A stretch of DNA of 64,000 nucleotides from Candidatus Omnitrophota bacterium. Its GTDB lineage: Bacteria > Omnitrophota > Gorgyraeia > B26-G9. A program made the position numbers and the translations under genes. Every line of letters starts with the position of its first letter. Positions within the stretch are counted from its first letter, which is position 1. Shown here one piece after another: positions 4,872 through 63,896 of this stretch. The notes beneath the pieces were generated by a model, which was given only the letters and a program-made list of their open reading frames with translations, was not told the DNA's origin and ran no database searches. The DNA is taken from positions 6,283-70,282 of the forward strand of contig JAZDHG010000034.1 in NCBI GenBank assembly GCA_043806135.1. Reading direction: 5' to 3'.

Positions 4872-5420
4872 CTACAAAACAGTCTTGATGTCTTCTAAAT
4901 TAGGCAAATTGGCGTCTTTTTCAGATAGAATAGGGTCTTTGATCGGCCATTTGATATTTATATGCGGATCACACCAGAGAATACCTTTGTCATGCTCAGG
5001 TGAATATTCATCACTGCATTGATAAACAACATCGGCCTTGTCAGAGAGTACACAAAAACCGTGCGCAAATCCTTCCGGGATATAAAGCATTTTGCGGTTC
5101 TCACTTGAAAGCACCTCTCCTACCCATGTGCCGTAATTTGCCGACCCCTTACGCAGATCAACAGCAACATCAAAGATCTCCCCGGCAATTACATTGACCA
5201 GCTTTGCCTGCGCCTTAGGGCTGCTTTGAAAATGCAGGCCCCGTAGAACATGCTTTTTTGAAGAAGAGTGATTTACCTGCACAAAAGGTTTGTTAAGCCC
5301 GTATCGGCCAAAAGCTGATACTTTAAAAAGCTCTATGAACTCACCGCGTTCATCAGCAAAAACATCCGGAGTGATCAGGATCATTTCAGGAATATCGAGC
5401 TTTTTAAAATTAAACGCCAT
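4872..5420 (-). CDS. rfbC: dTDP-4-dehydrorhamnose 3,5-epimerase
   Basis: 182 aa. RmlC cupin-fold signature PDVFADERGEF..., of typical length. Confidence 0.85.
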   Translation of the reverse strand: MAFNFKKLDIPEMILITPDVFADERGEFIELFKVSAFGRYGLNKPFVQVNHSSSKKHVLRGLHFQSSPKAQAKLVNVIAGEIFDVAVDLRKGSANYGTWVGEVLSSENRKMLYIPEGFAHGFCVLSDKADVVYQCSDEYSPEHDKGILWCDPHINIKWPIKDPILSEKDANLPNLEDIKTVL

Positions 5421-5421
5421 T

Positions 5422-6318
5422 CTATTGTTCCCCAGCGATCTTTCGCAGATATTCAGAGTAGCTTGTTTTCATCTGGCCGGCAAGTTTTAATAACTGCTCT
5501 TTTGTTATATACCCTTTTTTGTAAGCTATCTCTTCCAAACACCCGATCTTTAAACCCTGCCTGTCTTCAATGGTCTTGATAAAAATAGAGGCGTCAATAA
5601 GAGAATCATAAGTTCCTGTGTCCAGCCATGCATACCCCTGCTTTAATAGCCTTACCTTCAGCTTTTTATCCTTTAAATAGACATTATTAAGGTCTGTGAT
5701 CTCAAGCTCTCCCCTGGCTGAGGGCTTGATGTTTTTAGCGATCTGCACAACCTTATTATCATAAAAATATAATCCGGTGATCGCCCAATGAGACCTGGGA
5801 TTTTTTGGTTTTTCGACTATAGATACCGCATTATTGTCATTGTCAAATTCAATTACACCGTATCTCTGCGGGTCTTTTACATAGTATCCAAAAACGCAGG
5901 CACCAGTTTCCTGCTCAACCGCCTTCTTGAGCTCATATTCCAGTCCTGCACCGAAAAAGATATTATCTCCTAAAACCAGGCAGACCTTGTCATGAGCGAT
6001 AAAATCCTCTCCGATAATGAACGCTTCTGCTATGCCGCGGGGTTTATCCTGCTCGGCATATTGCACTTTAAGTCCAAAATCACTTCCATCACCGAATAAA
6101 GCTTTAAACTGACCCAGCGCCTCCGGGGTGGAGATTATAAGCACCTCGGTTATGCCTGCCTGCATCAGCACGGAAAGAGGATAATATATCATCGGCTTGT
6201 CGTAAACCGGCAATAGCTGCTTGCAGACACCTTTTGTTATCGGATATAACCTGGTCGCCTTGCCTCCGGCTAAAATAATACCTTTCATTATTGCTCCCTT
6301 TCCACAGGTATAATCCAC
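5422..6318 (-). CDS. rfbA: Glucose-1-phosphate thymidylyltransferase
   Basis: 298 aa. N-terminus [39 protein letters not shown] is the canonical RmlA nucleotidyltransferase motif. Only 2 nt separate it from rfbC. Confidence 0.9.
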
Positions 6319-6480
6319 AAATATTATCTGGATTATACCTGATTACAACGATTAATATTAGATTGCAACGATTAAACCATTAATCTCCGCACTTGACAGC
6401 TTTTATTGCCAAAATTTATTAATAGCCCAACCTTATATCCTGACACCTTTAGATACGATATAACTTGCAATTCAAATACA
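6296..6480. repeat. Conserved 3' flank of the GxxExxY cassette (copy A). It has an inverted repeat ggtataatcc-N16-ggattatacc and a direct repeat gattacaacgatta/gattgcaacgatta. Recurs at 33991-34180.
   Basis: Direct nucleotide alignment of 6296-6480 with 33991-34180, about 85% identical and including the last ~35 codons of the GxxExxY ORF. Confidence 0.6.
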
Positions 6481-6743
6481 GCAGGCACCTTACCTGATAG
6501 GGCTTTAATTTCAGTTACAATTTTGTCTTCCACAACTAAATCCATCCTCAATTTACCGATATTTTCTTTCTGAAACAAAATATCAAAACTTTTCTCAGTT
6601 TGATAGCTTAGACCATTCTCTTTTAAGGTTATTTTAAAAGCGTTATGGTATATTCTCTCATTGAATCCAGGACCAAGTTTACTATGCACCTTATAAGCGC
6701 AGGCGATTATTTTATCAGTTAAAGGATCTCTTTCCTTAATCAC
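6372..6743 (-). CDS. GxxExxY family small protein (putative PD-(D/E)xK fold)
   Basis: 123 aa. Contains the GPGFNERIY motif (G-x-x-E-x-x-Y). Length and motif placement are typical of the family. It sits in an intergenic slot whose flanks are repeated elsewhere in the window. Confidence 0.75.
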   Translation of the reverse strand: MIKERDPLTDKIIACAYKVHSKLGPGFNERIYHNAFKITLKENGLSYQTEKSFDILFQKENIGKLRMDLVVEDKIVTEIKALSGKVPAVFELQVISYLKVSGYKVGLLINFGNKSCQVRRLMV

Positions 6744-6852
6744 TGTAATCTCCTCTTGAATCTACGCAATCACGCCATCCTCCTGCACTTTTTTTTATAG
6801 GATGGCTTATTTCACTTACTGTCTTTTACCACTTCGCCTTTAAACAATTTAT

Positions 6853-8181
6853 CTATGCTTTTTGTCCCGCTTTGAGAATTGTTTTTAATGAATGATGAAT
6901 TTTATCAAATAAGCCGTCACGGATGGCAGATGCCACAGCCGGGGTGTTAACCAGCACTTCAGCTGTTACCCCAAGCTTTCCATCATTATCCTTAAGCGGT
7001 ATTAATTTTTGAAAGATTACCCCTCGTAAGCACTCGCTAAGGACTTTTCTCATATAATAATGTCTTTCTGTTGCAAACATATTGATTATTTTATCTAATA
7101 CCCCGACCACACCGGAACTTGAAATAACAACATATACAAGTTTTCCGCAAGCAGATGCATCAATAGCCAGATTAATAGTTTCTTCATCAGGGATATCGCT
7201 GAGCACCAGTACATCAACATCCTGCTGCATGGCCTGCTTTATCCCGCTGACAAATGATTCTGTATCTATGCCGACCTCTCTTTGTTTGATAACACTGTTC
7301 TTTACCGGGAATACATACTCGATCGGGTTCTGAAAAGTTAAAATAACACTAGAGCGCTCGCTGTTGATCTTTTCAATAAGCGCAGCGCAGGTGGTTGTCT
7401 TGCCGCAGCCTGCCGGGCCTGTGATCACCACTAATCCCGGTTTATTATCAGCAAAAGAAGACACAATATCAGGTAATTTTAAATCTTCAAGAGTCGGGAT
7501 CGGAACAGTTATAAGATGAAATGCGGCCTCAATAGCGCCTTGCTGCATATGCACGTTTAGCCGGAAACGATAAGTACCGGCTACCGTGACAATGGTAACC
7601 GCAGTATTAAGTTCGTGTTCAACGCTTATTTTATTTGTCTGGTCTTCTGTGAGCAGGCTGAAAACCATTCTTTTAATTGCCTGCCTATCTAAAGCATCGT
7701 ATTTCATTGCCTGCAGCTGCCCTGCCTTGCGAAGCATGGGAGGATGCTCTATAGACAGATGAACATCGGTAGCCTGCTCATACATAGCCAGCTGCAGCAG
7801 GCCGATAATGTCTACCTGTTCGATCTCAACCTGAAGTTTCTGGCGGTCTGTTCTCTTGATATCAGTAATAGCAGCAGCAACCCCGTACACTTCTCCGGCC
7901 TTGATCTCAGCCGCCCGAACAATACGTGCTTTCATAACTATCGGTACTTCGAAAAAAGGAATTTTCAGATTTACTTCCAGCTCAGTATTCAAGCTCATCG
8001 GATGAAAGGATTCAAAACATACACCCGCAGCGCTCAGGTTTTTCGTTACAGTGGAGTTCCAGGCACGGGATGCGCCCTCTTCATGCAATACCCTATACTG
8101 CATAGACAGCTGCGCTCTTACCCTGGCAAACTGCCTTCTATTCAAGCCCTCCTCAAACTGATTTTTGACTTTACTATCCAT
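6853..8181 (-). CDS. Fusion of an N-terminal PilZ domain to a PilT-like type IV pilus retraction ATPase
   Basis: 442 aa. The N-terminal ~110 aa carry PilZ motifs RRQFAR (RxxxR) and NLSAAG (NxSxxG). The remainder is a full PilT: N-domain, Walker A GPAGCGKTTT, Asp box VDVLVLSDIPDEE, His-box-equivalent VVISSSG and AIRDG. Confidence 0.7.
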   Translation of the reverse strand: MDSKVKNQFEEGLNRRQFARVRAQLSMQYRVLHEEGASRAWNSTVTKNLSAAGVCFESFHPMSLNTELEVNLKIPFFEVPIVMKARIVRAAEIKAGEVYGVAAAITDIKRTDRQKLQVEIEQVDIIGLLQLAMYEQATDVHLSIEHPPMLRKAGQLQAMKYDALDRQAIKRMVFSLLTEDQTNKISVEHELNTAVTIVTVAGTYRFRLNVHMQQGAIEAAFHLITVPIPTLEDLKLPDIVSSFADNKPGLVVITGPAGCGKTTTCAALIEKINSERSSVILTFQNPIEYVFPVKNSVIKQREVGIDTESFVSGIKQAMQQDVDVLVLSDIPDEETINLAIDASACGKLVYVVISSSGVVGVLDKIINMFATERHYYMRKVLSECLRGVIFQKLIPLKDNDGKLGVTAEVLVNTPAVASAIRDGLFDKIHHSLKTILKAGQKA

Positions 8182-8185
8182 TTTT

Positions 8186-8530
8186 TTATTTTCCTTTTCC
8201 CTTTTTTACCCCGCAAAAATTCTTTTCAAATTTAAGCAGCTCGTTTTTGAGCTTTACCCCCAGAGCATATCCCCCTATTTTCCCACTTGATGCAACCACC
8301 CGATGACAAGGTATCAAAAGAGGCAATGGATTTTTCTTGAGAGCCGTTCCTACAGCCCGCTGGGCATTCGGACGGCCGATACGTTCTGCTATCCACTTAT
8401 ATGTTCTGGTCTCACCCGGTTTAATTTCACAGGCCGCTTTTAAGACATCTTTTTGAAAAGGTGTAAATCCCTTCATTATAATATCAATACTTGTTCCAAT
8501 GTTCAATGATATTTTTTGCTGTTCTTTCAT
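8186..8530 (-). CDS. ogt: Methylated-DNA--protein-cysteine methyltransferase (MGMT/Ogt C-terminal domain only)
   Basis: PCHRVV active-site motif followed by a helix-turn-helix. A likely true start at M19 (position 8476) would lie 8 nt after the uvrC stop and remove the 47-nt overlap. Confidence 0.7.
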   Translation of the reverse strand: MKEQQKISLNIGTSIDIIMKGFTPFQKDVLKAACEIKPGETRTYKWIAERIGRPNAQRAVGTALKKNPLPLLIPCHRVVASSGKIGGYALGVKLKNELLKFEKNFCGVKKGKGK

Positions 8531-9884
8531 CTATCCCCTTTATTTTCTTAAGCTGCTTGATATTGATACCCTTTAATGAATTGATATTATCAAGCGCCCT
8601 GAGCAGGATCTGCCTTCTAACCTTGCCTATGCCGGGTATCTGGTCAAGTTCAGACATGAGCATCTGCTTTTTGCGCAAATTGCGGTGATAGCTCAAGGCA
8701 AAGCGATGTGCTTCGTCCCGGATAGCCGCAATAAGTCTTAAAGCCTTGGAATTAAGCGGCAAAGCTACGGGCTTGTTCTGCCACTGGACATAAATATGCT
8801 CGAATTTTTTGGCAATACTGATTATCGGAATATTAATTTTCAAACTATTAAGCTGCTCTAAGGCGCATTTTAGATGCCCTTTGCCGCCGTCGATAAGAAT
8901 CAGCTCGGGCAGATCAAGTGCAACCGAAATATCACCGGTAAAACGCCTTTTCAGTACTTCCTGCATCATGGCATAATCATCAATCCCTTTTACAGAATTA
9001 ATTTTAAACCTGCGGTAATCCTTTTTGTAAATTCGGCCTTGCTTAAAACGCACCATAGAGCCTACGGCCTCAGAGCCTGATATATTGGAGATATCATAGC
9101 CTTCGATATAAACAGGGCGCCTTTTTAATCTAAGGACTTTCTGCAGTTCCTCGACCTGGTCCGCAACGGCAAAGCGCTTGTAACCAATCGGCACAGAACT
9201 TAAGCTTTCGATCTTATCGCGCAGCTCAAGCGCAGCTTCGAAATTATGAGTTAAAGACGCGGACTTCATTTCATCAGAAAGCTTTTTTATCAGATCTGTT
9301 TTTTTGCCCCTCAAGAACAATAAAAGATTATTAACGTTTTGTTCATACCCCTCTTTACTTACCAGCCCCTGGCAGGGCCCCGGGCAGATCTTGAGATGAT
9401 AATTAAGGCATACAGACTTAGGCATCACATTACAAACTCTGAGCGGAAATATCCTGCGCATGAAATTCAGCGCCTGGCGCAATAGTTTTCCTGATGTGTA
9501 AGGCCCGAAATATTGCGCCCTGTCCTTTTTCCGGCGCCTTACAATACGCAAACGGGCAAATTTTTCGTCTGTGCCGAGGCGCAAAAGCGGATAGGCCTTG
9601 TCGTCCTTTATGTCTATATTAAACTTCGGCTTGTTTTCCTTGATAAGCCCAGCTTCTAAGATCAGCGCTTCGGCTTCGGTTGAAGTGGTAATAAATTCTA
9701 TATCAGCGATCCCACTTACCAGCAGTTTCAGCCTTTGCCCCTTGGCTGAGGAACCGAAATAAGAACTCACACGTTTTTTGAGTGATATCGCCTTGCCGAT
9801 ATAAATAATGGCCCCGTCCTTATCCAGCATTAGATAAACACCGGAGCCATCAGGCATTGCTTTTACTTTATCGCTTAAATTCAT
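8484..9884 (-). CDS. uvrC: Excinuclease ABC subunit C (compact form)
   Basis: 466 aa. N-terminal GIY-YIG (GVYLMLDKDGAIIYIGKA), a UVR-domain-like FEAALELRDKIESL, an endonuclease core and C-terminal HhH (IPGIGKVRRQILL..GIDERTAKNI). Confidence 0.75.
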   Translation of the reverse strand: MNLSDKVKAMPDGSGVYLMLDKDGAIIYIGKAISLKKRVSSYFGSSAKGQRLKLLVSGIADIEFITTSTEAEALILEAGLIKENKPKFNIDIKDDKAYPLLRLGTDEKFARLRIVRRRKKDRAQYFGPYTSGKLLRQALNFMRRIFPLRVCNVMPKSVCLNYHLKICPGPCQGLVSKEGYEQNVNNLLLFLRGKKTDLIKKLSDEMKSASLTHNFEAALELRDKIESLSSVPIGYKRFAVADQVEELQKVLRLKRRPVYIEGYDISNISGSEAVGSMVRFKQGRIYKKDYRRFKINSVKGIDDYAMMQEVLKRRFTGDISVALDLPELILIDGGKGHLKCALEQLNSLKINIPIISIAKKFEHIYVQWQNKPVALPLNSKALRLIAAIRDEAHRFALSYHRNLRKKQMLMSELDQIPGIGKVRRQILLRALDNINSLKGINIKQLKKIKGIDERTAKNIIEHWNKY

Positions 9885-11422
9885 GATTTGAATTTCAGAT
9901 TAATACCGTTAAATATTTTGAAATACCAGCCCAGCAGGAAATAGACGGCTATTCCGCCGGTTATAGAGATCAAAAGGCTCAATCCAATTTTAAAAAAAGA
10001 ACTGCTGAAGGAATAGGCCCAGAGGCAAAACACCCCCATGAGTGCTGAGATCAATAAAGTTTTCAGCGTATTGACAATAAGAGATATCAGGCCGAGATTG
10101 CCGATTTTTTTGCGCAGCAGAAATATCAAGATAAAGAAATTGGCTGTGGATGAAATAGATGTAGCCAGGGCCAGCCCCCCCACCTGAAGTACATGCATGA
10201 GCAAAAAGTTAAAAACACAGTTGATAATCAGGCATAGGAAAGTTATTTTTACCGGCGTAACCGTATCCTTTAATGCAAAAAAACAGGAAGTTATCACCCT
10301 TGCACCGCTATAGGCAAAAAGCCCCACACAGTAAAACGCCATGGCAAAGGAAGTCATCTGCGTGGACAATGCATCAAATTCACCTCGTTCAAACAAGAGC
10401 CGGATTATCGGCTCAGAAAGGACAAAAAGTCCGACACTTGAAGGAATAAGTAATACCAGCAGGGAGCGCAAAGACACCTCGATCGTTTTCTTCATTGCGT
10501 TCATGTCATTGGCTATGGCCTGCTGCGATAAAGTCGGCAGGCAGGCAGTAGCCAGGGCGGTGCCGAATAAGGCCGTAGGCAGCTGGATAAGCCTGTTTGC
10601 ATAATACAATGCCGCTATAGCGCCTTCACCGACGATCTGACCTAAGCTGGCAAACATGGTGTCTATAAAAATATTAAGCTGGTATATGCTTGATCCGAGC
10701 ATCCTCGGCAAAAGCAATCTGCCTATTCTTTTGATCGCCAGATGGCGAAAGTCAAATTCAAAGCGAAACTTAAACCCCTTTTTAATCAGCACAGGGATTT
10801 GAACAATAAGCTGCAAAACACCGCCGACAAGCACAGAGATAGAAAGTCCGATTATCGGATCCTGAAAATACTTACACAAATAAATCCCGAAAACTATCAT
10901 CGTGATATTTAAAAATACTGATGCCGCAGCAGGAGCGGCAAAATGCTTTAAGGTGTTTAGAATTCCCATTAAATACGCAGACAGGCCGACAAGGAAAATA
11001 AAGGAAAACATAATTCTGCTTAAGCGGATCGTCAAATCAAGCTTTGCCGGGTCATTCATAAATCCAAAAGCAATTATCCTTACTATAAGCGGCGACAAAA
11101 GCGTACCCAGCAAGGAAACCGCCGCCAGGATAATCACCACCGTGCTCAGTAAAAGATTGGCAACCCGCCAGAATTCCTTATTGTCTTTGTTATCAAGATA
11201 TTCACTTAAAACAGGTATAACTGCCGCATTGGCCGCCCCTTCTCCTATTAAGTCCCTAAGGGCATTCGGGATACGAAAAGCGACAACAAAGGCCTGTGCT
11301 GCTGCGCCTGTGCCGAACATCCTGGCGATAACCATATCCCTCGCAAAGCCTAAAATACGGCTAAGCAGGGTAAAAAAACTGACCACACCGGCTGATTTAA
11401 ATAATTTTTTATGCTCTGACAT
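9881..11422 (-). CDS. murJ: Lipid II flippase MurJ
   Basis: 513 aa with about 14 TM helices. Canonical MurJ N-terminus SFFTLLSRILGFARDMVIARMFGTGAAAQAFVVAFRIPN. Confidence 0.85.
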   Translation of the reverse strand: MSEHKKLFKSAGVVSFFTLLSRILGFARDMVIARMFGTGAAAQAFVVAFRIPNALRDLIGEGAANAAVIPVLSEYLDNKDNKEFWRVANLLLSTVVIILAAVSLLGTLLSPLIVRIIAFGFMNDPAKLDLTIRLSRIMFSFIFLVGLSAYLMGILNTLKHFAAPAAASVFLNITMIVFGIYLCKYFQDPIIGLSISVLVGGVLQLIVQIPVLIKKGFKFRFEFDFRHLAIKRIGRLLLPRMLGSSIYQLNIFIDTMFASLGQIVGEGAIAALYYANRLIQLPTALFGTALATACLPTLSQQAIANDMNAMKKTIEVSLRSLLVLLIPSSVGLFVLSEPIIRLLFERGEFDALSTQMTSFAMAFYCVGLFAYSGARVITSCFFALKDTVTPVKITFLCLIINCVFNFLLMHVLQVGGLALATSISSTANFFILIFLLRKKIGNLGLISLIVNTLKTLLISALMGVFCLWAYSFSSSFFKIGLSLLISITGGIAVYFLLGWYFKIFNGINLKFKS

Positions 11423-11587
11423 CTTTCCTCTCTACTGTCTTGTTCTGGAATAGTTGACACTTTTAAACACAGATAATTTAATTAACCGCCCGCTTCGCTT
11501 GATAAACGCTGATTAACACCGATCGTTATGCTATTTCCGGATAGCACAACCAATACGCAATACTCGATACAGGTTTTTCAAAATCTC

Positions 11588-11616
11588 TTGACATCCTCTG
11601 TGAGGTGTGTTATATT
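11588..11616 (+). promoter_or_regulatory. Sigma70-type promoter for rpsT
   Basis: TTGACA (11588-11593), a 17-nt spacer, then TATATT (11611-11616). An SD-like AAAGGAG lies at 11634-11640 and the ATG at 11649. The promoter sits in the divergent murJ/rpsT intergenic region. Confidence 0.55.
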
Positions 11617-14571: not shown

Positions 14572-14940
14572 TTAAGCGTTGCTGCAGGTTATTATTTCCT
14601 TCAAATGCACACGGCTTTCAATATTCATCTCAGAAAACTCAATGCCGATCTTATACTTCTCCTGGTACGGAACCTGCTCTACCCATACTACCCTGCCTAG
14701 AGTAATTATCGGCTCTGTATCATTAGAGGGAAAGATCTCAAGAATCATTTTAGAATTCACGGGGTAAAAATAAAACGACGAAAGCTGTATACCGCTTTCG
14801 CTGCAATCATGGGTCATTGAATTGTGAATTATCCCCGCGTGTTCTTGAAGCATTTGTCTAAGCTGTACAGGAAAGTCCGCGTTTTTCCTAAAAAATTCTC
14901 TGCGTTCTTTAACTGCTCCTTGGACAGTCATAACTATCAC
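14572..14940 (-). CDS. Stand-alone PilZ domain protein (c-di-GMP receptor-like)
   Basis: 122 aa with RREFFR (RxxxR) and DCSESG (DxSxxG) at canonical spacing. Confidence 0.7.
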   Translation of the reverse strand: MIVMTVQGAVKERREFFRKNADFPVQLRQMLQEHAGIIHNSMTHDCSESGIQLSSFYFYPVNSKMILEIFPSNDTEPIITLGRVVWVEQVPYQEKYKIGIEFSEMNIESRVHLKEIITCSNA

Positions 14941-18620: not shown

Positions 18621-19310
18621 TTAATCTAAAAAGAGGCTTTTTATCTTGCCCAATTCTCTCTGGTAATTTTTTTGAGAATCAATAAAAGACTTGTAATTAA
18701 GCTTCTCTAATTCTATGCTGCTGTCAAAGTCACAAATTCCTTCTAAATCTTTCCGCTTGCTAAGATATTCTTTGATAGATGAATACCGCCACTCTTCTGC
18801 ACTTTCCACTAATCCAGCTGTTACTGGATTCAAGTGAACATAACGGGTCAAATGCAGCAATTGCTCATCTGTTTCAACTAAAACATTTTTAAACCGGCTT
18901 TCCCATAGCGGTCCTTTCCTAGATGTTCTAATATTAAAAAATCTCGAATAGCTATTTAAGATATTTCCCATAAAAATAACAATACCTTCCTCTTGAAGCT
19001 GCTTTAGCACGAGATGAATATGTGTAGGCATAATGCAATATGCTATTATTTCCACTAAAAAATCCTTGCTGCTCCAATGCTTTTCAATGAAAATAGTCAT
19101 ATTTCTAATTTCTAAAAATTTAGAAAATTTTACACCTGTGTTTTTTATGCGATAATACTTAAATAAATCTATAATTCTATTATAATCATTCTTTGTGTGA
19201 AATATTTTATACCCTGCAATGCTTTTTGAATAAACATGGTAAATACCGCCGCTACTTAAAATGTTTTTCCTTCTCATTGATCTTCTCCTATTATCTAAAT
19301 TTGCCCACAC
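18621..19310 (-). CDS. REP-associated tyrosine transposase (IS200-like Y1/HUH transposase)
   Basis: 229 aa. HUH motif CIMPTHIHLV, plus GPLWESRF, YVHLNPVTAGLV and WRYSS (catalytic Tyr region). Flanked on both sides by GC-rich palindromes. Confidence 0.8.
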   Translation of the reverse strand: MWANLDNRRRSMRRKNILSSGGIYHVYSKSIAGYKIFHTKNDYNRIIDLFKYYRIKNTGVKFSKFLEIRNMTIFIEKHWSSKDFLVEIIAYCIMPTHIHLVLKQLQEEGIVIFMGNILNSYSRFFNIRTSRKGPLWESRFKNVLVETDEQLLHLTRYVHLNPVTAGLVESAEEWRYSSIKEYLSKRKDLEGICDFDSSIELEKLNYKSFIDSQKNYQRELGKIKSLFLD

Positions 19311-55052: not shown

Positions 55053-56717
55053 TTAGGCCATTTCTTTATTAATATCCAACTCCAGATCATAAAACTTAAC
55101 CCCTGCAGCGTATCCAGGGTTACCGTCATTTACTGCGACAGGAGATGTCCAAACTACTACCCCGTTACCCACAATAGGCTTCATTTTATCACGATGTATT
55201 TCAAATTCAAGAATATTTTTCGGCTGTAATTTTTCGGTTGTGACAATCTTCATTCCTGAACGCCCGACATCCTTACTCCAGCATATATGTTTCTTTTTTT
55301 GTCCGACAACTGTACATGTAACTTTATTAGATGTTTTTGAACGCTGTGACGATCTCCTTTCTTCAAATTTCCCAAAATCATGTTCGGATTGCACTTCATG
55401 CACAGAAGAAACAGAAAAAACAAGGGCCATGGCAAACCCAATCGTTAACCCGACAAGTACCCCCAACAAAAGATTAGTCAATAAATTTGGTTTAACCGGA
55501 GAATCCGGAACATCGGCAAGTTCTATTATTTCTGCATCAGGAAGCATATTGGTTCTCTGTTTTAAAATTTTTAACTCTTGGAGCTTTGCCTTAAGATCAG
55601 CATAAACTTCTCTTTTCATTTCAATATCACGATTGAGCCGGGCTAATTTAGGCTGGGTTTGAAGCGCTTTATTTAGCCTATTGGTTTGTTTTTCGTGATT
55701 TTCAATCAATGCTTCTTTTTTTCCAATTAAAGATTTTTTTTCTATCACTAAAGATTCTATCTCTGCCTTTACAATCTTATCGCTTTCCTTAGCCAGATCG
55801 ATTGTTAATTTAGCAATCGCCGCCTGAGCAACCATTACATCCGGATGATTTAAATTAAATTCTCCCATTAAAACATCCATCTTGAGATCAGCTAAACGGA
55901 TTTGTGATTTTAAGTCGTTTATAAGTTCATTATCTGTAAGAAATTTCAGGTTTAAATTTTCAGAATCATTTTTCTCCACCCGCCCTTTAATTTCAACGAT
56001 TTTAGTATTTAACATCTCTATATCAGCGTTAACAGCAGCTACATGCATGTCTAAATCAGCATATTTTTGCAGACTCAAAACTATATCCGACCCAAAGAGC
56101 ATAATCATATTATCTTGACTAGCTATTTCATTCAACTCCTCCTCAACAGCGTTAAAATCCTTTTTTGCCGTTTCGATCTCTTTTTCCAAGGCGGAAATAA
56201 TTCGCTCGACAGTTTCACTTTTTAATTTTACTCTGTTTTCAATATAGGTTTCTGCTATCGCATTTGCTAACATTGAGGCAAACAAAGGGTTCGGCTGCTG
56301 TACCTGAAGCTCTAAAACATTTGTGCCTTCTAATAGAGTAAGACTGATTTTTTTCTGTAACATACTCTTATTTAATGAGTTGGGATCCAAACCTTTAAAT
56401 TCCTCTTTCGAAAAATCTATTTTTTGCAGTGCCTTGTCTATAACAGATCTGCTCTTTATAATTTCAGCTTGTGAATTAGCAAATTGCCATCCGGTCTCAT
56501 AAGAGGGAAACTCATCTTTAGGATTGAGTTTCTCTTCCCTAACCAATATTTTTGTACTTACCTCATATATGGGTTTCACAAATACTTTAGTAGCAAAAAA
56601 AGCAGCCGCCAGTGTTATGATAATTGAGCTAGCAATAATCAGTTTACCTCTTCTAATAACATTCAGGATATCGATTGAATCAATATCATTTTGTATTAAA
56701 TTTGAATTTTTCATCAT
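55053..56717 (-). CDS. Polysaccharide chain-length determinant protein (Wzz/GumC-like, no kinase domain) with a C-terminal PilZ-like domain
   Basis: N-terminal Wzz region plus TM1, a long coiled-coil periplasmic region, and TM2 (LLTNLLLGVLVGLTIGFAMALVF). The roughly 100-aa cytoplasmic tail has RRSSQR (RxxxR) and a degenerate DVGRSG, followed by beta-strand patterning reminiscent of PilZ. Confidence 0.7.
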   Translation of the reverse strand: MMKNSNLIQNDIDSIDILNVIRRGKLIIASSIIITLAAAFFATKVFVKPIYEVSTKILVREEKLNPKDEFPSYETGWQFANSQAEIIKSRSVIDKALQKIDFSKEEFKGLDPNSLNKSMLQKKISLTLLEGTNVLELQVQQPNPLFASMLANAIAETYIENRVKLKSETVERIISALEKEIETAKKDFNAVEEELNEIASQDNMIMLFGSDIVLSLQKYADLDMHVAAVNADIEMLNTKIVEIKGRVEKNDSENLNLKFLTDNELINDLKSQIRLADLKMDVLMGEFNLNHPDVMVAQAAIAKLTIDLAKESDKIVKAEIESLVIEKKSLIGKKEALIENHEKQTNRLNKALQTQPKLARLNRDIEMKREVYADLKAKLQELKILKQRTNMLPDAEIIELADVPDSPVKPNLLTNLLLGVLVGLTIGFAMALVFSVSSVHEVQSEHDFGKFEERRSSQRSKTSNKVTCTVVGQKKKHICWSKDVGRSGMKIVTTEKLQPKNILEFEIHRDKMKPIVGNGVVVWTSPVAVNDGNPGYAAGVKFYDLELDINKEMA

Positions 56718-58005: not shown

Positions 58006-60978
58006 TTAAGCTGGCACTGCCTTATAAGCATTTATAAAAACAGACATATCTACAATCAGTTTACCTTTATCATTAGTAAAAATAGAAATAATATCATCAA
58101 AACTCATACCCTGGTTTTTCATCACATCAACCAGCTCAGCATGATCATATCCGGCAGCTACCATGGCTGCAGCAATTGCTCTATTATCAAGACCGTTATT
58201 TGATAAAAGATTGTAAGTATTTTCAGTAGTCTGCCCGCCCTGTTGAAGCCCCTTAGTTATACTGCTCCAAGAAACTGAACTATTAACCGCAGCCAAGACC
58301 ACATCTTCTGCCGAATTACCCCATAAGACTAACAAACTCACAACTTTATCTGTCTTACCCGCACCAGCATCTTCAAAAGCGCTAATAATTCTGGTCATAT
58401 CCCAACCCAGTGATTGCATTCCGATCATTAGGTTATCAACTTCACCATGGGAGCCGTCCAGCATTGCCGTTACTATTTCATCGTCACTTAAATTATTGTT
58501 AGTTAAAATCGTAAGTACTTCAAGCGACTCAAAACCATTTGTTTTTAATCCGCTGGCAATTTCCTTCCAGCTTGCACCAGCCTCTTGCACAGTGGAAACA
58601 ACTGCATCAGTTTCAAACCCGGCTTTAAGAAAGGCATCAACCAGTTCTGCGGCATGACTAGGTTTCCCCTTACTTGTAAACGCATCAATCACCTGGTTCA
58701 TATCACTGCCTTGATTCAACATCGCAGTTGCTATATCACCTGCATTATAACCGCCGGCAAGCATCGAAGTAACGATTTTTGAATTGCTTAATCCATTTGA
58801 TGTTAAAACCGTAAAAGTATCAGCAGCGCTTACACCTCCCTGCTGCAAACCTTGCGTAATCGGGTCCCAGTCAATCTTTGCCTCTATCGCAGCAGTAACC
58901 ACTTCATCAACGGAAACTCCGGCTTTAACCAAAGCAGCCACAACTGCAGCCCCCTGGCGAACCACATTGGATTCAGTTACCGTTTCTGTTTCCGTTTCTC
59001 CATCTGTGCTGGTTGTTGTAACAGACTCTTCTTTAAACGCTTCAAATATGCGGGCGCTATCCCATCCCAGGGTAACCATGCCCTGAACCATTTTGCCGAT
59101 ATTCCCTCCGCCTTTATCCATCATTGCGCTTACAACTTCCTTATCACTAAGGCCGTTATCTTTAAGGTATTGAACTATTTTATCAAAATCAGCATTGCCA
59201 AATTCCATTCCCTTGGCAATATCTTTAACCTTCATCCCTGCTTCTTTTGCAGCCGCAGCTATTTCTTCAAAGGTATATTTGCCTGATTTCATTAAAGCAC
59301 TGACCACCGATTTTCCTACTTTAACATTAACAACAATTTTATTTTTGAATGCCTTAAATATAGAATTCATATCCATTCCCAGATTGATTAGTCCGGCAAC
59401 AATACCGCCGGCATCTCTGCCGCTATCAAGCATCTTTCCTACTACCTCAATGTCGCTTAACCCCTGTTCAGATAGAATAGTATAGACCTCCTCTGAGCTC
59501 ATACCAGTTGATACTAAACCCTTGGTAATATTCTCCCAGGATGTCCCCGCCTTTCTGACTGCCGTAATAACCTCTTCTGCTGAATATCCGGCTTTTATCA
59601 AGCCTGTAACAACTGCTGCATCATCCTTAGCTCCGTCAAAAGAAGCAATAATTGTCTCCATGCTCCAGCCCAACTCGTTCATGGCGATTACCATGCTGCC
59701 AGCGCCGAAATTTGTATTCTTACGCAGAGCATCAACTATTTTCTTTTCCGTTAATCCGTTTGACTGTAAAATTTCAATGATTTCACTTATGGTTGAACCG
59801 GAATTTTTAAGGCCCAAAGATATTTTATCCCAGCTGATTCCGGCCTTACTTGCTGCACTGACAACCTCTTCTATGGTAAATTTTTTCGAGTTGATCAAAG
59901 CCACGCAAAGCAGCTCTCCCTTGGAATTTCCTTCAGTTTTAAAAGCATTAAAAATTTCCTCAGCACTTTTTCCCATAGCGATCATTGCATTTACCAGATC
60001 GTTAGTGTTAGTGCCTCCATCAAGAAGGTATCCTACAACTTTGCTTTCACTGACCCCCTGTTCTTCCATAACAGAGAACACTTCTTCAATACTCAAACCG
60101 CCGGCACTTAGTCCAGCCACTATATTTTTAATGGAAATCCCTGCTCCCTTTGCAGCAGAGATAACATCATCAGTGGAAATTCCTGATTTAACCAATGCTG
60201 CCACCACCTCAGCAGCCTTACGCACAATACCAGTGTCTACATTTTTAAATGACTTAAAAATTTGGTCAGTGCTCATGCCTTGGGCAATCATTCCCTTAAC
60301 AATATCACTTGTAGTATAGTTGCCATCAAGCATCATTGTTACAATCTGCCTATCTTCATAACCGGCATTCTGCAAGATCAAAAGAACTTCCTGAGCCGAT
60401 GCGCCGGACTTTTTAAGCGCAGTGACAATTTCCGTATATGAATATCCCTTTGCAATTAATGATTTTGTCATGTCTTCATAACTTACCCCAGCATTTTCAA
60501 GTGCTGAGTTATCAGCCATAACCTCTTTTTGATTATTAACTAACGCGGCAGGCACTACTTTAGCGGCCTCTTCTTTGGAAAATACCTCAGCAATCAAATT
60601 ATAGGCAACATCCCCATATCCCAGAGAAATAAGCCCCAAAGCAATATCATTGCTGGAAAAACCTGATTTCTTTAGAGTGCTTACAATATTACTTAAATCT
60701 GTTCCTGCACTCACAAATCCGGTTATTAAACCTTTTACATCTTCAACGGTTGAAGCGCTTTGCTGAGTATTACTACTTCCTCCCGTATTTATATACTCTG
60801 TAGTCACTGGTTTTCTGTTAACTTGATCATCGCTAATTTCCTGATTTACATTTGTATCTGATGTTTGCGGGTCAATCTGTTCCGGCAAAATAGCGCCATG
60901 AAGCATCCCGTAAGCTCCAAGCGTAAACAGAAAAACTATCATGAGATTAATAATAGTGAACATTTTCATGATAAGCAC
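58006..60978 (-). CDS. Large secreted tandem-repeat protein (about 9 helical repeats of ~95 aa) in the PilY1 position. Putative pilus-associated factor of unknown family.
   Basis: 990 aa. Signal peptide MKMFTIINLMIVFLFTLGAYG. Repeats follow the pattern ..VVAALVKAG.S.D.V..A...AGISW..I..GL...G.S.EEV...L...GLS...IV..MLDGG....D.V..M...G.....I..AFK. Confidence 0.6.
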   Translation of the reverse strand: MLIMKMFTIINLMIVFLFTLGAYGMLHGAILPEQIDPQTSDTNVNQEISDDQVNRKPVTTEYINTGGSSNTQQSASTVEDVKGLITGFVSAGTDLSNIVSTLKKSGFSSNDIALGLISLGYGDVAYNLIAEVFSKEEAAKVVPAALVNNQKEVMADNSALENAGVSYEDMTKSLIAKGYSYTEIVTALKKSGASAQEVLLILQNAGYEDRQIVTMMLDGNYTTSDIVKGMIAQGMSTDQIFKSFKNVDTGIVRKAAEVVAALVKSGISTDDVISAAKGAGISIKNIVAGLSAGGLSIEEVFSVMEEQGVSESKVVGYLLDGGTNTNDLVNAMIAMGKSAEEIFNAFKTEGNSKGELLCVALINSKKFTIEEVVSAASKAGISWDKISLGLKNSGSTISEIIEILQSNGLTEKKIVDALRKNTNFGAGSMVIAMNELGWSMETIIASFDGAKDDAAVVTGLIKAGYSAEEVITAVRKAGTSWENITKGLVSTGMSSEEVYTILSEQGLSDIEVVGKMLDSGRDAGGIVAGLINLGMDMNSIFKAFKNKIVVNVKVGKSVVSALMKSGKYTFEEIAAAAKEAGMKVKDIAKGMEFGNADFDKIVQYLKDNGLSDKEVVSAMMDKGGGNIGKMVQGMVTLGWDSARIFEAFKEESVTTTSTDGETETETVTESNVVRQGAAVVAALVKAGVSVDEVVTAAIEAKIDWDPITQGLQQGGVSAADTFTVLTSNGLSNSKIVTSMLAGGYNAGDIATAMLNQGSDMNQVIDAFTSKGKPSHAAELVDAFLKAGFETDAVVSTVQEAGASWKEIASGLKTNGFESLEVLTILTNNNLSDDEIVTAMLDGSHGEVDNLMIGMQSLGWDMTRIISAFEDAGAGKTDKVVSLLVLWGNSAEDVVLAAVNSSVSWSSITKGLQQGGQTTENTYNLLSNNGLDNRAIAAAMVAAGYDHAELVDVMKNQGMSFDDIISIFTNDKGKLIVDMSVFINAYKAVPA

Positions 60979-61445: not shown

Positions 61446-62720
61446 TTAAGGAGTGGTATACCCTCGCCAGGAAGTTACAAAATAACCTAAGATTAAAGCT
61501 TCAGGATCTTCTCTTGACGCAATATCATAATGATATTTCAAGCCTGTAGTACATTCTACTGTTTTACCGACAACACTGCCATAAAAAACAGTGTCCGGGC
61601 CAATTCGAACATCAGCATTAGGCGCGTAAATATTCCCATAAAATCCACTGGCATGCGAACTAAGATTAAATGAAGCTACATTGTCAGTACAATAAATCTT
61701 AAACCTTAGAGGATCATAGGTAGTATTGTCAATTTTTGCCCCATTTCCAAAAGTAGTATTTCCATTTAGCCATAATTTGGCAGTATTTCCAGGATTTATT
61801 AAAATCTTGCTGTTAACACCAAGCTTCAGTTCCCCGATCACATAAATATCAACATTAGCATTAATTTCAAGTATAGCATCCTTTTCAAGCTTAATAGAAT
61901 CATATTCTACCTCATTATCGTTTATTGTAAACGTCGTACCGTTTGACACAGTAAGCGCCCCCCGGTTAGGTGCATATACTCCGGTCTGATCAGGTATTGA
62001 CAGCAGGGGTTTATCCTTATTTAACCATTTCACGGCTCCGTTATATACGCCGGAGCCTGTCAGTAAAATCACATCCGCAGGGTCTCCTCCTAAGCCAATA
62101 GTAATATCTCCAGTAACAATACTGTTGTTGCCGATTTTAATTGTTTTAGCAGCTATTGAATTAGTAACAAAGTCTGCATCTGTGCCTATATTTCCCGCTA
62201 CACCATAAAATCCAATCCGGGAATCATAGCTGTCAACTAAAGCATTGCTTCCGATATTAATGCCGCTATAACCCATGATCGCGTCTTTAAAAAGCTTCTC
62301 CTCAACAGCAATAACCTTAACTGTTTTCGAAGCCATCTGGTTGGCCTGGTTTGGAAAGTAACCTATTGATTCAACTTCATAAGATTTAGGCTCAGTGACT
62401 AAATTAATCACAGTTACAATGAATTCACCAATTGTATCTCCGCCAGGGATACCAATATTTCCTGTTCTTGTCCATTTTACGCCTGTTACTGTTGTCCAGC
62501 CCTCTGTTGCAAGGAATTCCCTTCCGCCATGATTTACTTCCAAGAGCCCAAGTTCCGCGCCGGCTTCAGCAATATGCATTGCTTCAACTTCCGCGTAGGT
62601 TCTTATGGAAATTTGCGCATTTGAATGCACTGATGCCACATAACTTGTACCCAAAATAACCAGGCCCAGAATCAGAATAAGCGATAATAATAAAGCGCTA
62701 CCTTTTTTATTAAATAACAT
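61446..62720 (-). CDS. PilX-like type IV pilus minor component (PilX_N domain plus beta-helix-like C-terminus)
   Basis: N-terminus KKGSALLLSLILILGLVILGTSYVASV .. AEAGAELGL matches PilX_N. The C-terminal G/N/T-rich repeats suggest a parallel beta-helix. Confidence 0.6.
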   Translation of the reverse strand: MLFNKKGSALLLSLILILGLVILGTSYVASVHSNAQISIRTYAEVEAMHIAEAGAELGLLEVNHGGREFLATEGWTTVTGVKWTRTGNIGIPGGDTIGEFIVTVINLVTEPKSYEVESIGYFPNQANQMASKTVKVIAVEEKLFKDAIMGYSGINIGSNALVDSYDSRIGFYGVAGNIGTDADFVTNSIAAKTIKIGNNSIVTGDITIGLGGDPADVILLTGSGVYNGAVKWLNKDKPLLSIPDQTGVYAPNRGALTVSNGTTFTINDNEVEYDSIKLEKDAILEINANVDIYVIGELKLGVNSKILINPGNTAKLWLNGNTTFGNGAKIDNTTYDPLRFKIYCTDNVASFNLSSHASGFYGNIYAPNADVRIGPDTVFYGSVVGKTVECTTGLKYHYDIASREDPEALILGYFVTSWRGYTTP

Positions 62721-62732
62721 GCTGCCTTTCCC

Positions 62733-63386
62733 TTAAAAATTCCGCATCAGAATACTCGTAACTGCATTTGACTGCAGAACACGGCTTCCTAAAACAGTTT
62801 TTGCGGTTGTTAATCTTATTGTTATATTTCTTACCGCTGCTAAAATTCCCACACTGCCAAGTCCTGTACCTCCTGAGCTGAAATTTAAGGCGCTAACATT
62901 ACGCGCAATAATATAAATTCCTCCCGGCCTGGCGCTTGAAGCATCCGGGGCCACGACTCTTTCTAATATTGCCGGGTCATCGTCATTTAAATGATAAACC
63001 ACATAATCAACACTTCCGGTTAAATTCATGAGGTTATTAATAGAAGGGATTCTTAAAACAAGCACATTATCACCGGTTGTGTACGTCTTGCCGCTGATTG
63101 ATCGAGAATTTTCAATAACAATCGCCCATTCAATATCTTTTCTGGCCCAATCCAGGCTTTGTCGTGTTTGCCCATGCAAATCCAGTAATACCGTGCCTGT
63201 TATAAAACTTCGCTGACAGCCAATATATGCGCCAATAATAACCGTGGATATTCCCACAAATATTGCTGTTGAGACGAGCACTTCAACTAAGGTAAACCCC
63301 GTTAGAAAATTACGCTTTTTTGCTTTCTTAAAAAATTCCTTTTTTGAAACCCAATCTATTATGTTTTGCATAAACATTGTTTTCAT
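62733..63386 (-). CDS. Type IV pilus minor pilin (PilW/FimT-like, prepilin-type N-terminal methylation domain)
   Basis: GFTLVEVLVSTAIFVGISTVIIGAY class III signal/N-methylation motif. Confidence 0.6.
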   Translation of the reverse strand: MKTMFMQNIIDWVSKKEFFKKAKKRNFLTGFTLVEVLVSTAIFVGISTVIIGAYIGCQRSFITGTVLLDLHGQTRQSLDWARKDIEWAIVIENSRSISGKTYTTGDNVLVLRIPSINNLMNLTGSVDYVVYHLNDDDPAILERVVAPDASSARPGGIYIIARNVSALNFSSGGTGLGSVGILAAVRNITIRLTTAKTVLGSRVLQSNAVTSILMRNF

Positions 63387-63476
63387 GCAAATTGCCCTTT
63401 CTTAACTTTTATCTCCACTTCTTTTCTGTGTTTTTTCTAACGGGGTAAACCCTTTTTGTCTTTTCATGATTTTTTT

Positions 63477-63896
63477 TTAAGAGCTGATCCCTTCATCCGT
63501 TATATAAGTAACCAAGCTTCTGGTCAGAGACTGCCCTGCAGGAGAATCCCAGGTAATTGTAACCGTAACCCGAACGATTCTGCTAATCGGGAAAACAGGT
63601 TCAGGAGGAGAATCAACAAGTATCTGCCCTTGCGGATTGCTAAGCTGGGTAAATCCTGCAGATATGAACGTTGATGATGGAGTAGTAATAATTGTACTGA
63701 ATTGAGTTTGACGGATTAATTCCATCTGCTCTTCAAGCATATTAATAACCAGATTATTGGCTTGCACCTCGGCAATAAACATCGTACCTTTGGAAAAAAG
63801 CATGAATATTCCCATTAATGATGCACTCAAAATAATCATTGTCATAAGTATTTCTACTAAAGTGAATCCTTTGTTTTTTCTTACTTTAAAACTCAT
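63477..63896 (-). CDS. Type IV pilus minor pilin PilV-like
   Basis: MSFKVRKNKGFTLVEILMTMIILSASLMGIF prepilin motif. 139 aa. Confidence 0.7.
   Translation of the reverse strand: MSFKVRKNKGFTLVEILMTMIILSASLMGIFMLFSKGTMFIAEVQANNLVINMLEEQMELIRQTQFSTIITTPSSTFISAGFTQLSNPQGQILVDSPPEPVFPISRIVRVTVTITWDSPAGQSLTRSLVTYITDEGISS

Follow-up and report, generated by a model that had tools for sequence, protein, structure and literature searches.

The gene considered here raises the question of whether a domain that senses cyclic di-GMP (c-di-GMP) has been built into a type IV pilus retraction motor, or whether it is carried by a PilT-like protein that no longer works as one. It was found in a 64,000-nucleotide stretch of contig JAZDHG010000034.1 from a Candidatus Omnitrophota bacterium (the whole stretch is called the window below), where a single minus-strand open reading frame (ORF) with an ATG start occupies exactly positions 6853-8181 and encodes 442 amino acids (aa). 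All features given below with window coordinates lie on this strand. The gene joins a PilZ c-di-GMP-sensing domain (aa 14-117) to a two-domain PilT fold (approximately aa 124-430). Its product is 100% identical to an entry (P0001) from a Candidatus Omnitrophota metagenome-assembled genome (MAG), which was recovered in a search of 5.8 billion proteins and bears only the database label 'ATPase, T2SS/T4P/T4SS family'.

The initial annotation had described the product as a PilZ domain fused to a complete PilT retraction ATPase, an arrangement that would place pilus retraction directly under the control of c-di-GMP. On the analysis presented here the protein is more likely to be a signal-binding regulator than a working motor, because its motor part has lost most of the catalytic residues. 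Our preferred interpretation, to which we give a probability of about one half, is that the product is a receptor for c-di-GMP whose scaffold is a catalytically degenerate, non-catalytic PilT.

The sensor domain and the PilT-like scaffold

The Pfam PilZ model PF07238 matches aa 14-117 (7831-8142) with 36.7 bits against a cut-off of 22.5 (E 5.5e-9), and both c-di-GMP motifs are present, RRxxxR as RRQFAR at aa 15-20 (8122-8139) and (D/N)xSxxG as NLSAAG at aa 48-53 (8023-8040). In an alignment of 16 diverse N-termini, with identities down to 18-33%, the sole invariant columns were R16, R20, S50 and G53, and the two arginines of RRQFAR are invariant in all aligned fusions and across 16-25 relatives. 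These four columns are the ligand-binding residues of PilZ domains. A profile of the N-terminus retrieved only PilZ domains from the PDB, including MotI/YpfA (5VX6, 7.6e-5) and the PilZ domain of BcsA (4I86, 2.5e-3). The AlphaFold2 (AF2) model of aa 1-136 (pLDDT 81.3) forms a six-strand beta-barrel with a C-terminal helix, and its top 47 Foldseek matches in the PDB were all PilZ domains, the best of them MotI (8.9e-7), with Alg44, PA0012, YcgR, BcsA, MrkH, MapZ, PlzA and VCA0042 also represented. Judged by motifs, profiles and predicted fold, aa 14-117 are a genuine, canonical PilZ domain with both motifs intact, for which c-di-GMP binding is predicted, and on this point the initial annotation was borne out.

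Neither of the two objections that the initial annotation had raised against its own proposal survives. A fold other than PilZ for the N-terminus is ruled out by the PDB profile and Foldseek matches, which were to PilZ only. A start codon downstream of the PilZ segment is ruled out by the position of the ATG, 4 nt past the stop codon of the upstream ogt-like gene and preceded by an AAGGA-type purine run, and by PilZ itself, which falls within the ORF and is conserved among orthologues more strongly than any other domain. An MshEN (T2SSE_N-like) domain with its paired 24-residue motifs was matched nowhere in the protein by Pfam or NCBIfam, the GspE/PilB models matching the P-loop core only, and Pfam gave no YcgR-N/PilZN match ahead of PilZ, which begins at aa 14. 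In both AF2 models DSSP assigns a continuous helix to aa 110-134 (7780-7854), which leads out of the PilZ barrel and merges with the first helix of the PilT N-terminal domain. This predicted helix suggests a rigid rather than a flexible PilZ/PilT junction, which may have a mechanical meaning.

The remainder of the protein, from about aa 124 to 430, is modelled as a complete PilT fold with an N-terminal (N2D-like) domain (7492-7812) and a C-terminal ATPase-fold domain (CTD; 6892-7491). By sequence the best match among solved structures was Geobacter PilT4 (5ZFQ/6OJX, about 1e-58), followed by the PilT proteins of Thermus, Aquifex and Pseudomonas and by PilU, and Foldseek matched the full-length AF2 model (pLDDT 83.8) to 6OJX with an E value of 7e-33, a TM score of 0.82 and an rmsd of 1.6 Å. 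Identity to PilT of Pseudomonas aeruginosa (3JVV) and PilT4 of Geobacter metallireducens (6OJX) is 35-36% over about 307 aligned columns. In the domain scan that the initial annotation had called for, T2SSE (PF00437) matches the CTD with 68.7 bits, alongside the PilZ match; the NCBIfam PilT/PilU model TIGR01420 gives 291.4, which is below its cut-off of 319.1.

In PilT-like ATPases both Walker motifs (A and B), the glutamate that acts in catalysis, a pair of arginine fingers and one Asp-box glutamate are completely conserved, and a His-box histidine contacts the gamma-phosphate (McCallum et al. 2017, PMC5424180). All five PilT paralogues of Myxococcus xanthus retain the hallmark motifs (PMC13584747). 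The corresponding positions of the window protein were compared in a gap-free HMMER alignment to PilT4 and in MAFFT tables, and are numbered here after P. aeruginosa PilT (PaPilT). The Walker A motif, GPAGCGKTT (7393-7419), is intact, with G260 and K261 invariant. The Asp box, TFQNPIEY (7315-7338), keeps the putative Mg-coordinating glutamate equivalent to E163, which is invariant in the clade and which would correspond to the Mg ligand E357 of GmPilB. Also kept are K136, D207 and R82, the last being R207 of the window protein in the N2D-like domain. By alignment, the nucleotide- and putative Mg-binding residues (Walker A Lys and Thr, the Asp-box Glu and the first arginine finger, that of RFRxN) are retained.

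The residues for hydrolysis and for coupling between subunits have fared differently. The second arginine finger (R97) is replaced by His222 of the window protein (7516-7518), and His occupies this position in 20 of 21 clade members. E159/D160 of the Asp box are Gln/Asn. The Walker B region is degenerate (DVDVLVLSDIPD, 7186-7221), with SD in place of G203E204 and Pro in place of R206 (P331), and so is the His box (ACGKLVYVVISS, 7117-7152), where H222 is Lys (K347) and H229 is Ser (S354). These PaPilT-numbered changes were seen both in the HMMER alignment and in the MAFFT tables; in addition, the AIRNLIRE motif reads AVASAIRD. A natural R206S replacement inactivates PilT of Vibrio cholerae (Adams et al. 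2019, PMC6762196). As read from the alignments, the catalytic Glu, the second arginine finger, R206 and both His-box histidines are lost. Compared with the PilTs of P. aeruginosa and G. metallireducens, the window protein is alike in its two-domain fold, its Walker A motif, its Asp-box Glu and its RFRxN finger, but it adds an N-terminal PilZ domain, scores under the TIGR01420 cut-off, lacks the residues just listed together with AIRNLIRE, and is not encoded beside pilus genes. The description of it as a complete retraction ATPase could not be upheld, in view of these substitutions, the TIGR01420 score and the frameshift that affects its end.

The frameshift concerns the final 12 residues of the called ORF, which are out of frame relative to the orthologues. 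The ancestral C-terminal tail, SSFIKNNSQSGTKSIDKLFKGEVVKDSK followed by a stop, lies in the -1 frame at 6812-6898, and one base is missing in the T run at GATAAAATT/TCATCA. In a tblastn comparison the tail of the orthologue P0004 matched frame -2 at 6898-6815 (E 1.3e-4), with a stop at 6812-6814, and this alignment in another frame supersedes the simpler view that the tail is short. The frameshift could be either a real mutation or a homopolymer assembly error. Short, variable C-terminal tails are also found in close relatives.

The family of PilZ-PilT fusions

The idea that the fusion is unique to this gene was considered and is ruled out by its distribution. The search of 5.8 billion proteins returned about 30 PilZ+T2SSE proteins at 32-81% identity, the named ones coming only from Omnitrophica/Omnitrophota, and after these ordinary PilTs at about 38%. 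When 1.84 billion representatives were searched with a profile, 40 of the best 150 matches were full-length PilZ+PilT proteins. Scanning the GTDB species genomes gave 284 relatives, and among the best 80 loci, on which architecture was scored, 62 had an N-terminal PilZ-type extension. The architecture is therefore widespread and not a one-off. By label the 62 loci comprise 41 from Omnitrophota, 10 from Planctomycetes-labelled MAGs, 4 from unclassified bacteria, and one each from Zixibacteria, Elusimicrobiota, Nitrospirae, Pseudomonadota, the Patescibacteria group, Deltaproteobacteria and Ca. Undivivens. The profiling of clades suggested by the initial annotation thus places the fusion mostly in Omnitrophota, where the family is concentrated, and gives it a range wider than had been supposed. 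Also among the strongest matches were tandem PilT-PilT fusions of about 710-750 aa (P0025-P0027, P0121-P0127) and PilTs carrying long N-terminal extensions of other kinds (up to 1099 aa).

A crude neighbour-joining tree of the ATPase region places all fusions together in a single clade, apart from the PilZ-less PilTs, and the window type is a long-branch subclade within it. To judge from this tree the PilZ-PilT fusions are apparently monophyletic, and the window type would have originated inside this wider family, most of whose members have an active-looking motor. A fully canonical catalytic set is found in P0138, P0140 (Zixibacteria), P0150 and P0154 and at loci L013, L015, L016, L024, L026, L037, L044 and L053, and L012, L013, L017 and L021, from three other fusion subfamilies, pass TIGR01420 with 385-452 bits. 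The canonical-motif fusions (the Zixibacteria MCJ7457976.1/P0140 cluster and L013, L015 and L017 from Omnitrophota) share with the window protein its architecture, the invariant PilZ motifs and membership of the one clade; they differ from it in having all or nearly all of the catalytic residues, scores in this passing range, and an ATPase domain that is their most conserved part. The members of the window subfamily that were tested all fall below the cut-off (L006 297.8, L008 280.2, L009 248.6).

Comparisons within the window clade indicate how its active site has changed. Position 204 varies between D, E, A, Q, K and G, and therefore no catalytic base appears to be under selection there. The subfamily as a whole conserves His at position 97 and Pro at 206, and the site has therefore been remodelled and not randomly eroded, which speaks for a new constraint rather than decay. 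Conservation by domain is inverted between the subfamilies. In the window subfamily it is 0.66-0.67 for PilZ, 0.58 for N2D and 0.51-0.57 for the CTD, whereas in the three other fusion subfamilies it is 0.33-0.52 for PilZ and 0.64-0.89 for the ATPase domain, and selection in the window clade is therefore strongest on the sensor. The subfamily can be seen as a natural experiment in which the chemistry was lost while the sensor was kept and most strongly conserved, a combination that points to a putative pseudo-ATPase regulator. Such a protein would make it tractable to test whether rings of the PilT fold can signal through occupancy and not through work, as engineered dead PilT variants suggest.

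Three MAGs with the window type also encode a second PilZ-PilT protein at 32-34% identity (S2.42, L006/L017; RS_8_62, L007/L029; MM_PC_MetaG.mb.228, L008/L033). The site of this paralogue is near-canonical, only R206 being changed to Leu and T230 to Ala, with the motif AIRNHIRE or AVRNLIRE, and its TIGR01420 score is 412 bits. In L017 the gene order is guaA-dnaE-fusion-hisS, and the paralogue is about 3 kb from a gene for a GAF-HD-GYP protein of the HD_5 family (the pair at 8007-9401 and 12283-13779 of L017). Proteins of the HD_5 family are commonly c-di-GMP phosphodiesterases. Direct control of retraction by c-di-GMP, as first proposed for the window protein, found no support there, where ATPase-site residues are lost and no pilus gene is adjacent; it fits the canonical-motif relatives much better, including the paralogues in the same MAGs.

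According to reviews, MshEN and PilZ/FimX are the only c-di-GMP inputs to pilus ATPases (PMC10333796, PMC11656802), which agrees with the statement in the initial annotation that such inputs use MshEN domains or separate PilZ/FimX partners, and PilT is listed as not binding c-di-GMP (PMC10333796). No description of a PilZ-PilT fusion was found in the searchable literature, outside which most subscription journals lie, so that this absence is not proof; two PilZ surveys make no mention of PilT or ATPase fusions. The pairing of the PilZ and PilT domains is already visible in precomputed Pfam annotation. Automatic annotation calls such proteins 'Flp pilus assembly ATPase TadA' or 'PilT', which overstates the capability of the window clade. 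A canonical PilZ domain hard-wired to a retraction-type ATPase would, if true, constitute a third, direct route from c-di-GMP to pilus motors. Omnitrophota are ultra-small and possibly predatory or host-dependent, and surface appendages are thought to be central to them.

Proposed mode of action and its alternatives

As a receptor on a non-catalytic scaffold, the protein would still bind ATP and would probably form PilT-like rings, but would do little or no mechanical work. Binding of c-di-GMP at the RxxxR loop and the barrel could reposition PilZ against the N-domain, so changing the conformation of the ring or the surface offered to a partner, and the output would then be binding and not pulling. 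The likeliest partners would be a type IV pilus or a platform resembling the type II secretion system (T2SS), or the catalytically competent PilZ-PilT paralogue of the same genomes, and the role of the protein might be that of a c-di-GMP-dependent brake, competitor or adaptor.

There is precedent for such a role in V. cholerae, where hydrolysis-dead PilT still supports PilU-driven retraction and ATPase-dead forms (K136A, E204A and the natural R206S) show that a non-hydrolysing ring still works as an adaptor at the pilus base (PMC6762196). The window protein is changed at positions 204 and 206. The V. cholerae proteins, however, derive from a bona fide PilT encoded in a pilTU operon and were engineered or differ from it at a single site, whereas the window protein has many clade-fixed substitutions and a PilZ domain. 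The MshE/PilB extension ATPases also have a c-di-GMP-binding domain at the N-terminus, ahead of N2D and topologically equivalent (PMC11656802), but the sensor of the window protein is a PilZ beta-barrel and not MshEN, its scaffold belongs to the PilT (retraction) branch and not to PilB/GspE, and it is non-catalytic on our interpretation. A PilZ-family protein is likewise tied to a type IV pilus ATPase in the PilZ (PA2960/XAC1133)-FimX-PilB system (PMC8389850). Those PilZ proteins are separate polypeptides without the c-di-GMP motifs and bind PilB, whereas the window PilZ is fused in cis to a PilT-type fold and has both motifs. The flagellar brake and clutch proteins YcgR and MotI (YpfA, 5VX6) offer an analogy only: MotI is the closest solved PilZ domain by profile and by fold, and the shared logic could be that a c-di-GMP-loaded PilZ stalls a motor by binding and not by catalysis. 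In the window protein YcgR-N/PilZN is missing, the output domain has a PilT fold, and the target would be a pilus machine and not a flagellar one.

A wider proposal can be put forward only tentatively, as possible and not as probable. On this proposal the fusions would make up a monophyletic and as yet undescribed group of pilus motors wired to c-di-GMP, widespread among Omnitrophota and the uncultured phyla that neighbour them. The window subfamily would be a hydrolysis-dead PilT ring that binds ATP and c-di-GMP and serves as a brake or adaptor on a type IV pilus or T2SS-like machine, or couples to envelope polysaccharide synthesis, alongside an active PilZ-PilT paralogue in the same cell.

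The presence of prepilin-type genes in the same window was counted in favour of the receptor interpretation, but a number of points weigh against it. No pilus-machine gene lies within about 8 kb of the fusion in any of nine loci, and the genes conserved around it concern the envelope, DNA repair and sugar nucleotides. Pfam searches for pilus genes over the whole window and loci L001-L004 and L017 found none near the fusion; the only such genes of the window, for prepilins, are far away at 62.7-63.9 kb. That the protein assembles into rings and binds partners is pure inference. An Asp at the catalytic site and Lys or His near the phosphates could in principle sustain slow hydrolysis. The PaPilT numbering depends on the reference sequence used for it, in which K136, E204 and R206 agree with published positions (PMC6762196). 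Then there is the C-terminal frameshift of the window copy. Finally, the gene at the same syntenic position in L010, from an Omnitrophota genome (L010/P0028, 327-338 aa; L010 8001-9134) is without the PilZ part and bears further substitutions (Arg at position 204, Asp at 206, Asn at 207), and by its sequence may be a further step of decay. Because of that frameshift and of the PilZ loss in L010/P0028, certain lineages may be losing the gene.

Of the other explanations the one that survives best, although we consider it unlikely, is that the protein acts as a c-di-GMP effector in the biogenesis of envelope polysaccharide or of the cell envelope and has no link to pili; a dead PilT ring would then serve as a scaffold regulating the adjacent dTDP-rhamnose/extracellular polysaccharide (EPS) pathway or envelope assembly. 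It draws on the gene order. Eight relatives at 49-81% identity strictly conserve the one-strand array PilZ-BamD-LptE-HolA-MurJ-UvrC-Ogt-like-fusion-RmlA-RmlC, the fusion being followed in some of them by UDP-Glc dehydrogenase, or by a MerR-family gene and then Wza/GNVR. In the window rmlA-rmlC, identified as the conserved downstream neighbours by comparison with these relatives, occupy 4872-6318. A large EPS cluster in the window has a PilZ-bearing chain-length determinant, and pilus genes are not adjacent to the fusion. Synteny in related small genomes, however, may persist without a functional link, and housekeeping genes unrelated to one another (holA, uvrC, ogt) are mixed in the array, while the sister paralogue stands in the different housekeeping context described above. 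We know of no precedent for a PilT-fold protein acting directly on sugar-nucleotide enzymes.

It is improbable, in our estimate, that the protein still drives retraction as an active ATPase, with c-di-GMP on PilZ gating the motor in cis. In favour of this, the PilZ-PilT architecture and the fold are both intact, Walker A is retained together with the Asp-box Glu, R82 and D207, and the residue at position 204 is an acidic Asp; family members with canonical motifs exist as well, and the mechanism probably applies to those. Position 204, however, is not conserved among orthologues, and the residues altered at R97, R206, H222, H229 and E159/D160 (His, Pro, Lys, Ser and Gln/Asn) are otherwise invariant, mutations in them abolishing function (PMC5424180, PMC6762196). 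The score under the TIGR01420 cut-off, the ATPase domain as the least conserved part, the degenerate AIRNLIRE and the frameshifted C-terminus tell against a working motor too. Least probable of all is that the gene is a paralogue in decay, on its way to becoming a pseudogene and now without function. The frameshift, the short and variable tails of close relatives, the further-changed L010/P0028, the long branch and a conservation lower than that of the neighbours (49-54% against 57-78%) could be read in that way. Against this, intact ORFs of full length persist in 20 or more clusters (90% identity), with identities reaching down to about 41%; PilZ is highly conserved with invariant ligand residues; the replacements specific to the clade are conserved in their turn; neither Walker A nor the putative Mg-binding Glu varies; and the syntenic position and operon-like junction are maintained.

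Neighbouring genes and other features of the window

Immediately upstream, the ogt-like gene (8186-8530), which encodes an MGMT C-terminal domain, abuts the fusion and keeps this position in seven of eight relatives. Its product is a single-domain protein of 114 aa with the active site PCHRV, and the gene overlaps the 3' end of uvrC by 47 nt. It is probably co-transcribed with the fusion gene through an operon-like junction, at which the two genes of the conserved array either abut or overlap. A scan of 6200-11600 for promoters and terminators found no terminator between the two genes and no strong promoter, and was uninformative. Between the fusion and rmlA is a PDDEXK_3 (GxxExxY-type) gene (6372-6743), which is absent from this place in all eight syntenic relatives and was probably inserted recently.

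At the head of the same array is a stand-alone PilZ gene (14572-14940; 122 aa), whose product matches PF07238 with 46.5 bits, has the motifs RREFFR and DCSESG, and is syntenic in six of eight relatives. It is divergent from a YhdP/AsmA-like gene of 1010 aa, which is adjoined by a gene for a 229-aa protein with an IS200-like Y1 transposase domain (18621-19310). The chain-length determinant mentioned above (Wzz + GNVR; 55053-56717) has a C-terminal PilZ domain of 34.7 bits in which the first motif is present as RRSSQR and the second reads DVGRSG, with Gly for Ser. Both of these PilZ-containing proteins had been named in the initial annotation and are real. It had seen in them a dense network of c-di-GMP effectors coupled to pili and EPS; that the window encodes three PilZ-containing proteins stands, and beyond this the network found no support.

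The chain-length determinant is part of a large polysaccharide cluster (28958-57541), with Wza, a priming sugar transferase, Wzx, Wzy and several GT1/GT2 genes. The cluster is also unusually dense in five B12-binding radical-SAM enzymes and in SAM methyltransferases, likewise five, which hints at sugars that are extensively methylated or modified. Three pilin-like genes (61446-63896) form a locus that runs to the end of the window. Two of them have G/FTLVE prepilin N-termini, and the one at 63477-63896 passes TIGR02532; the third encodes a DUF7305 protein of 424 aa whose N-terminus is hydrophobic. An ORF of 990 aa (58006-60978) stands between these genes and the EPS cluster; it has many weak, repeated matches to short helical modules (UBA-like, DUF7626) and probably encodes a repetitive protein.

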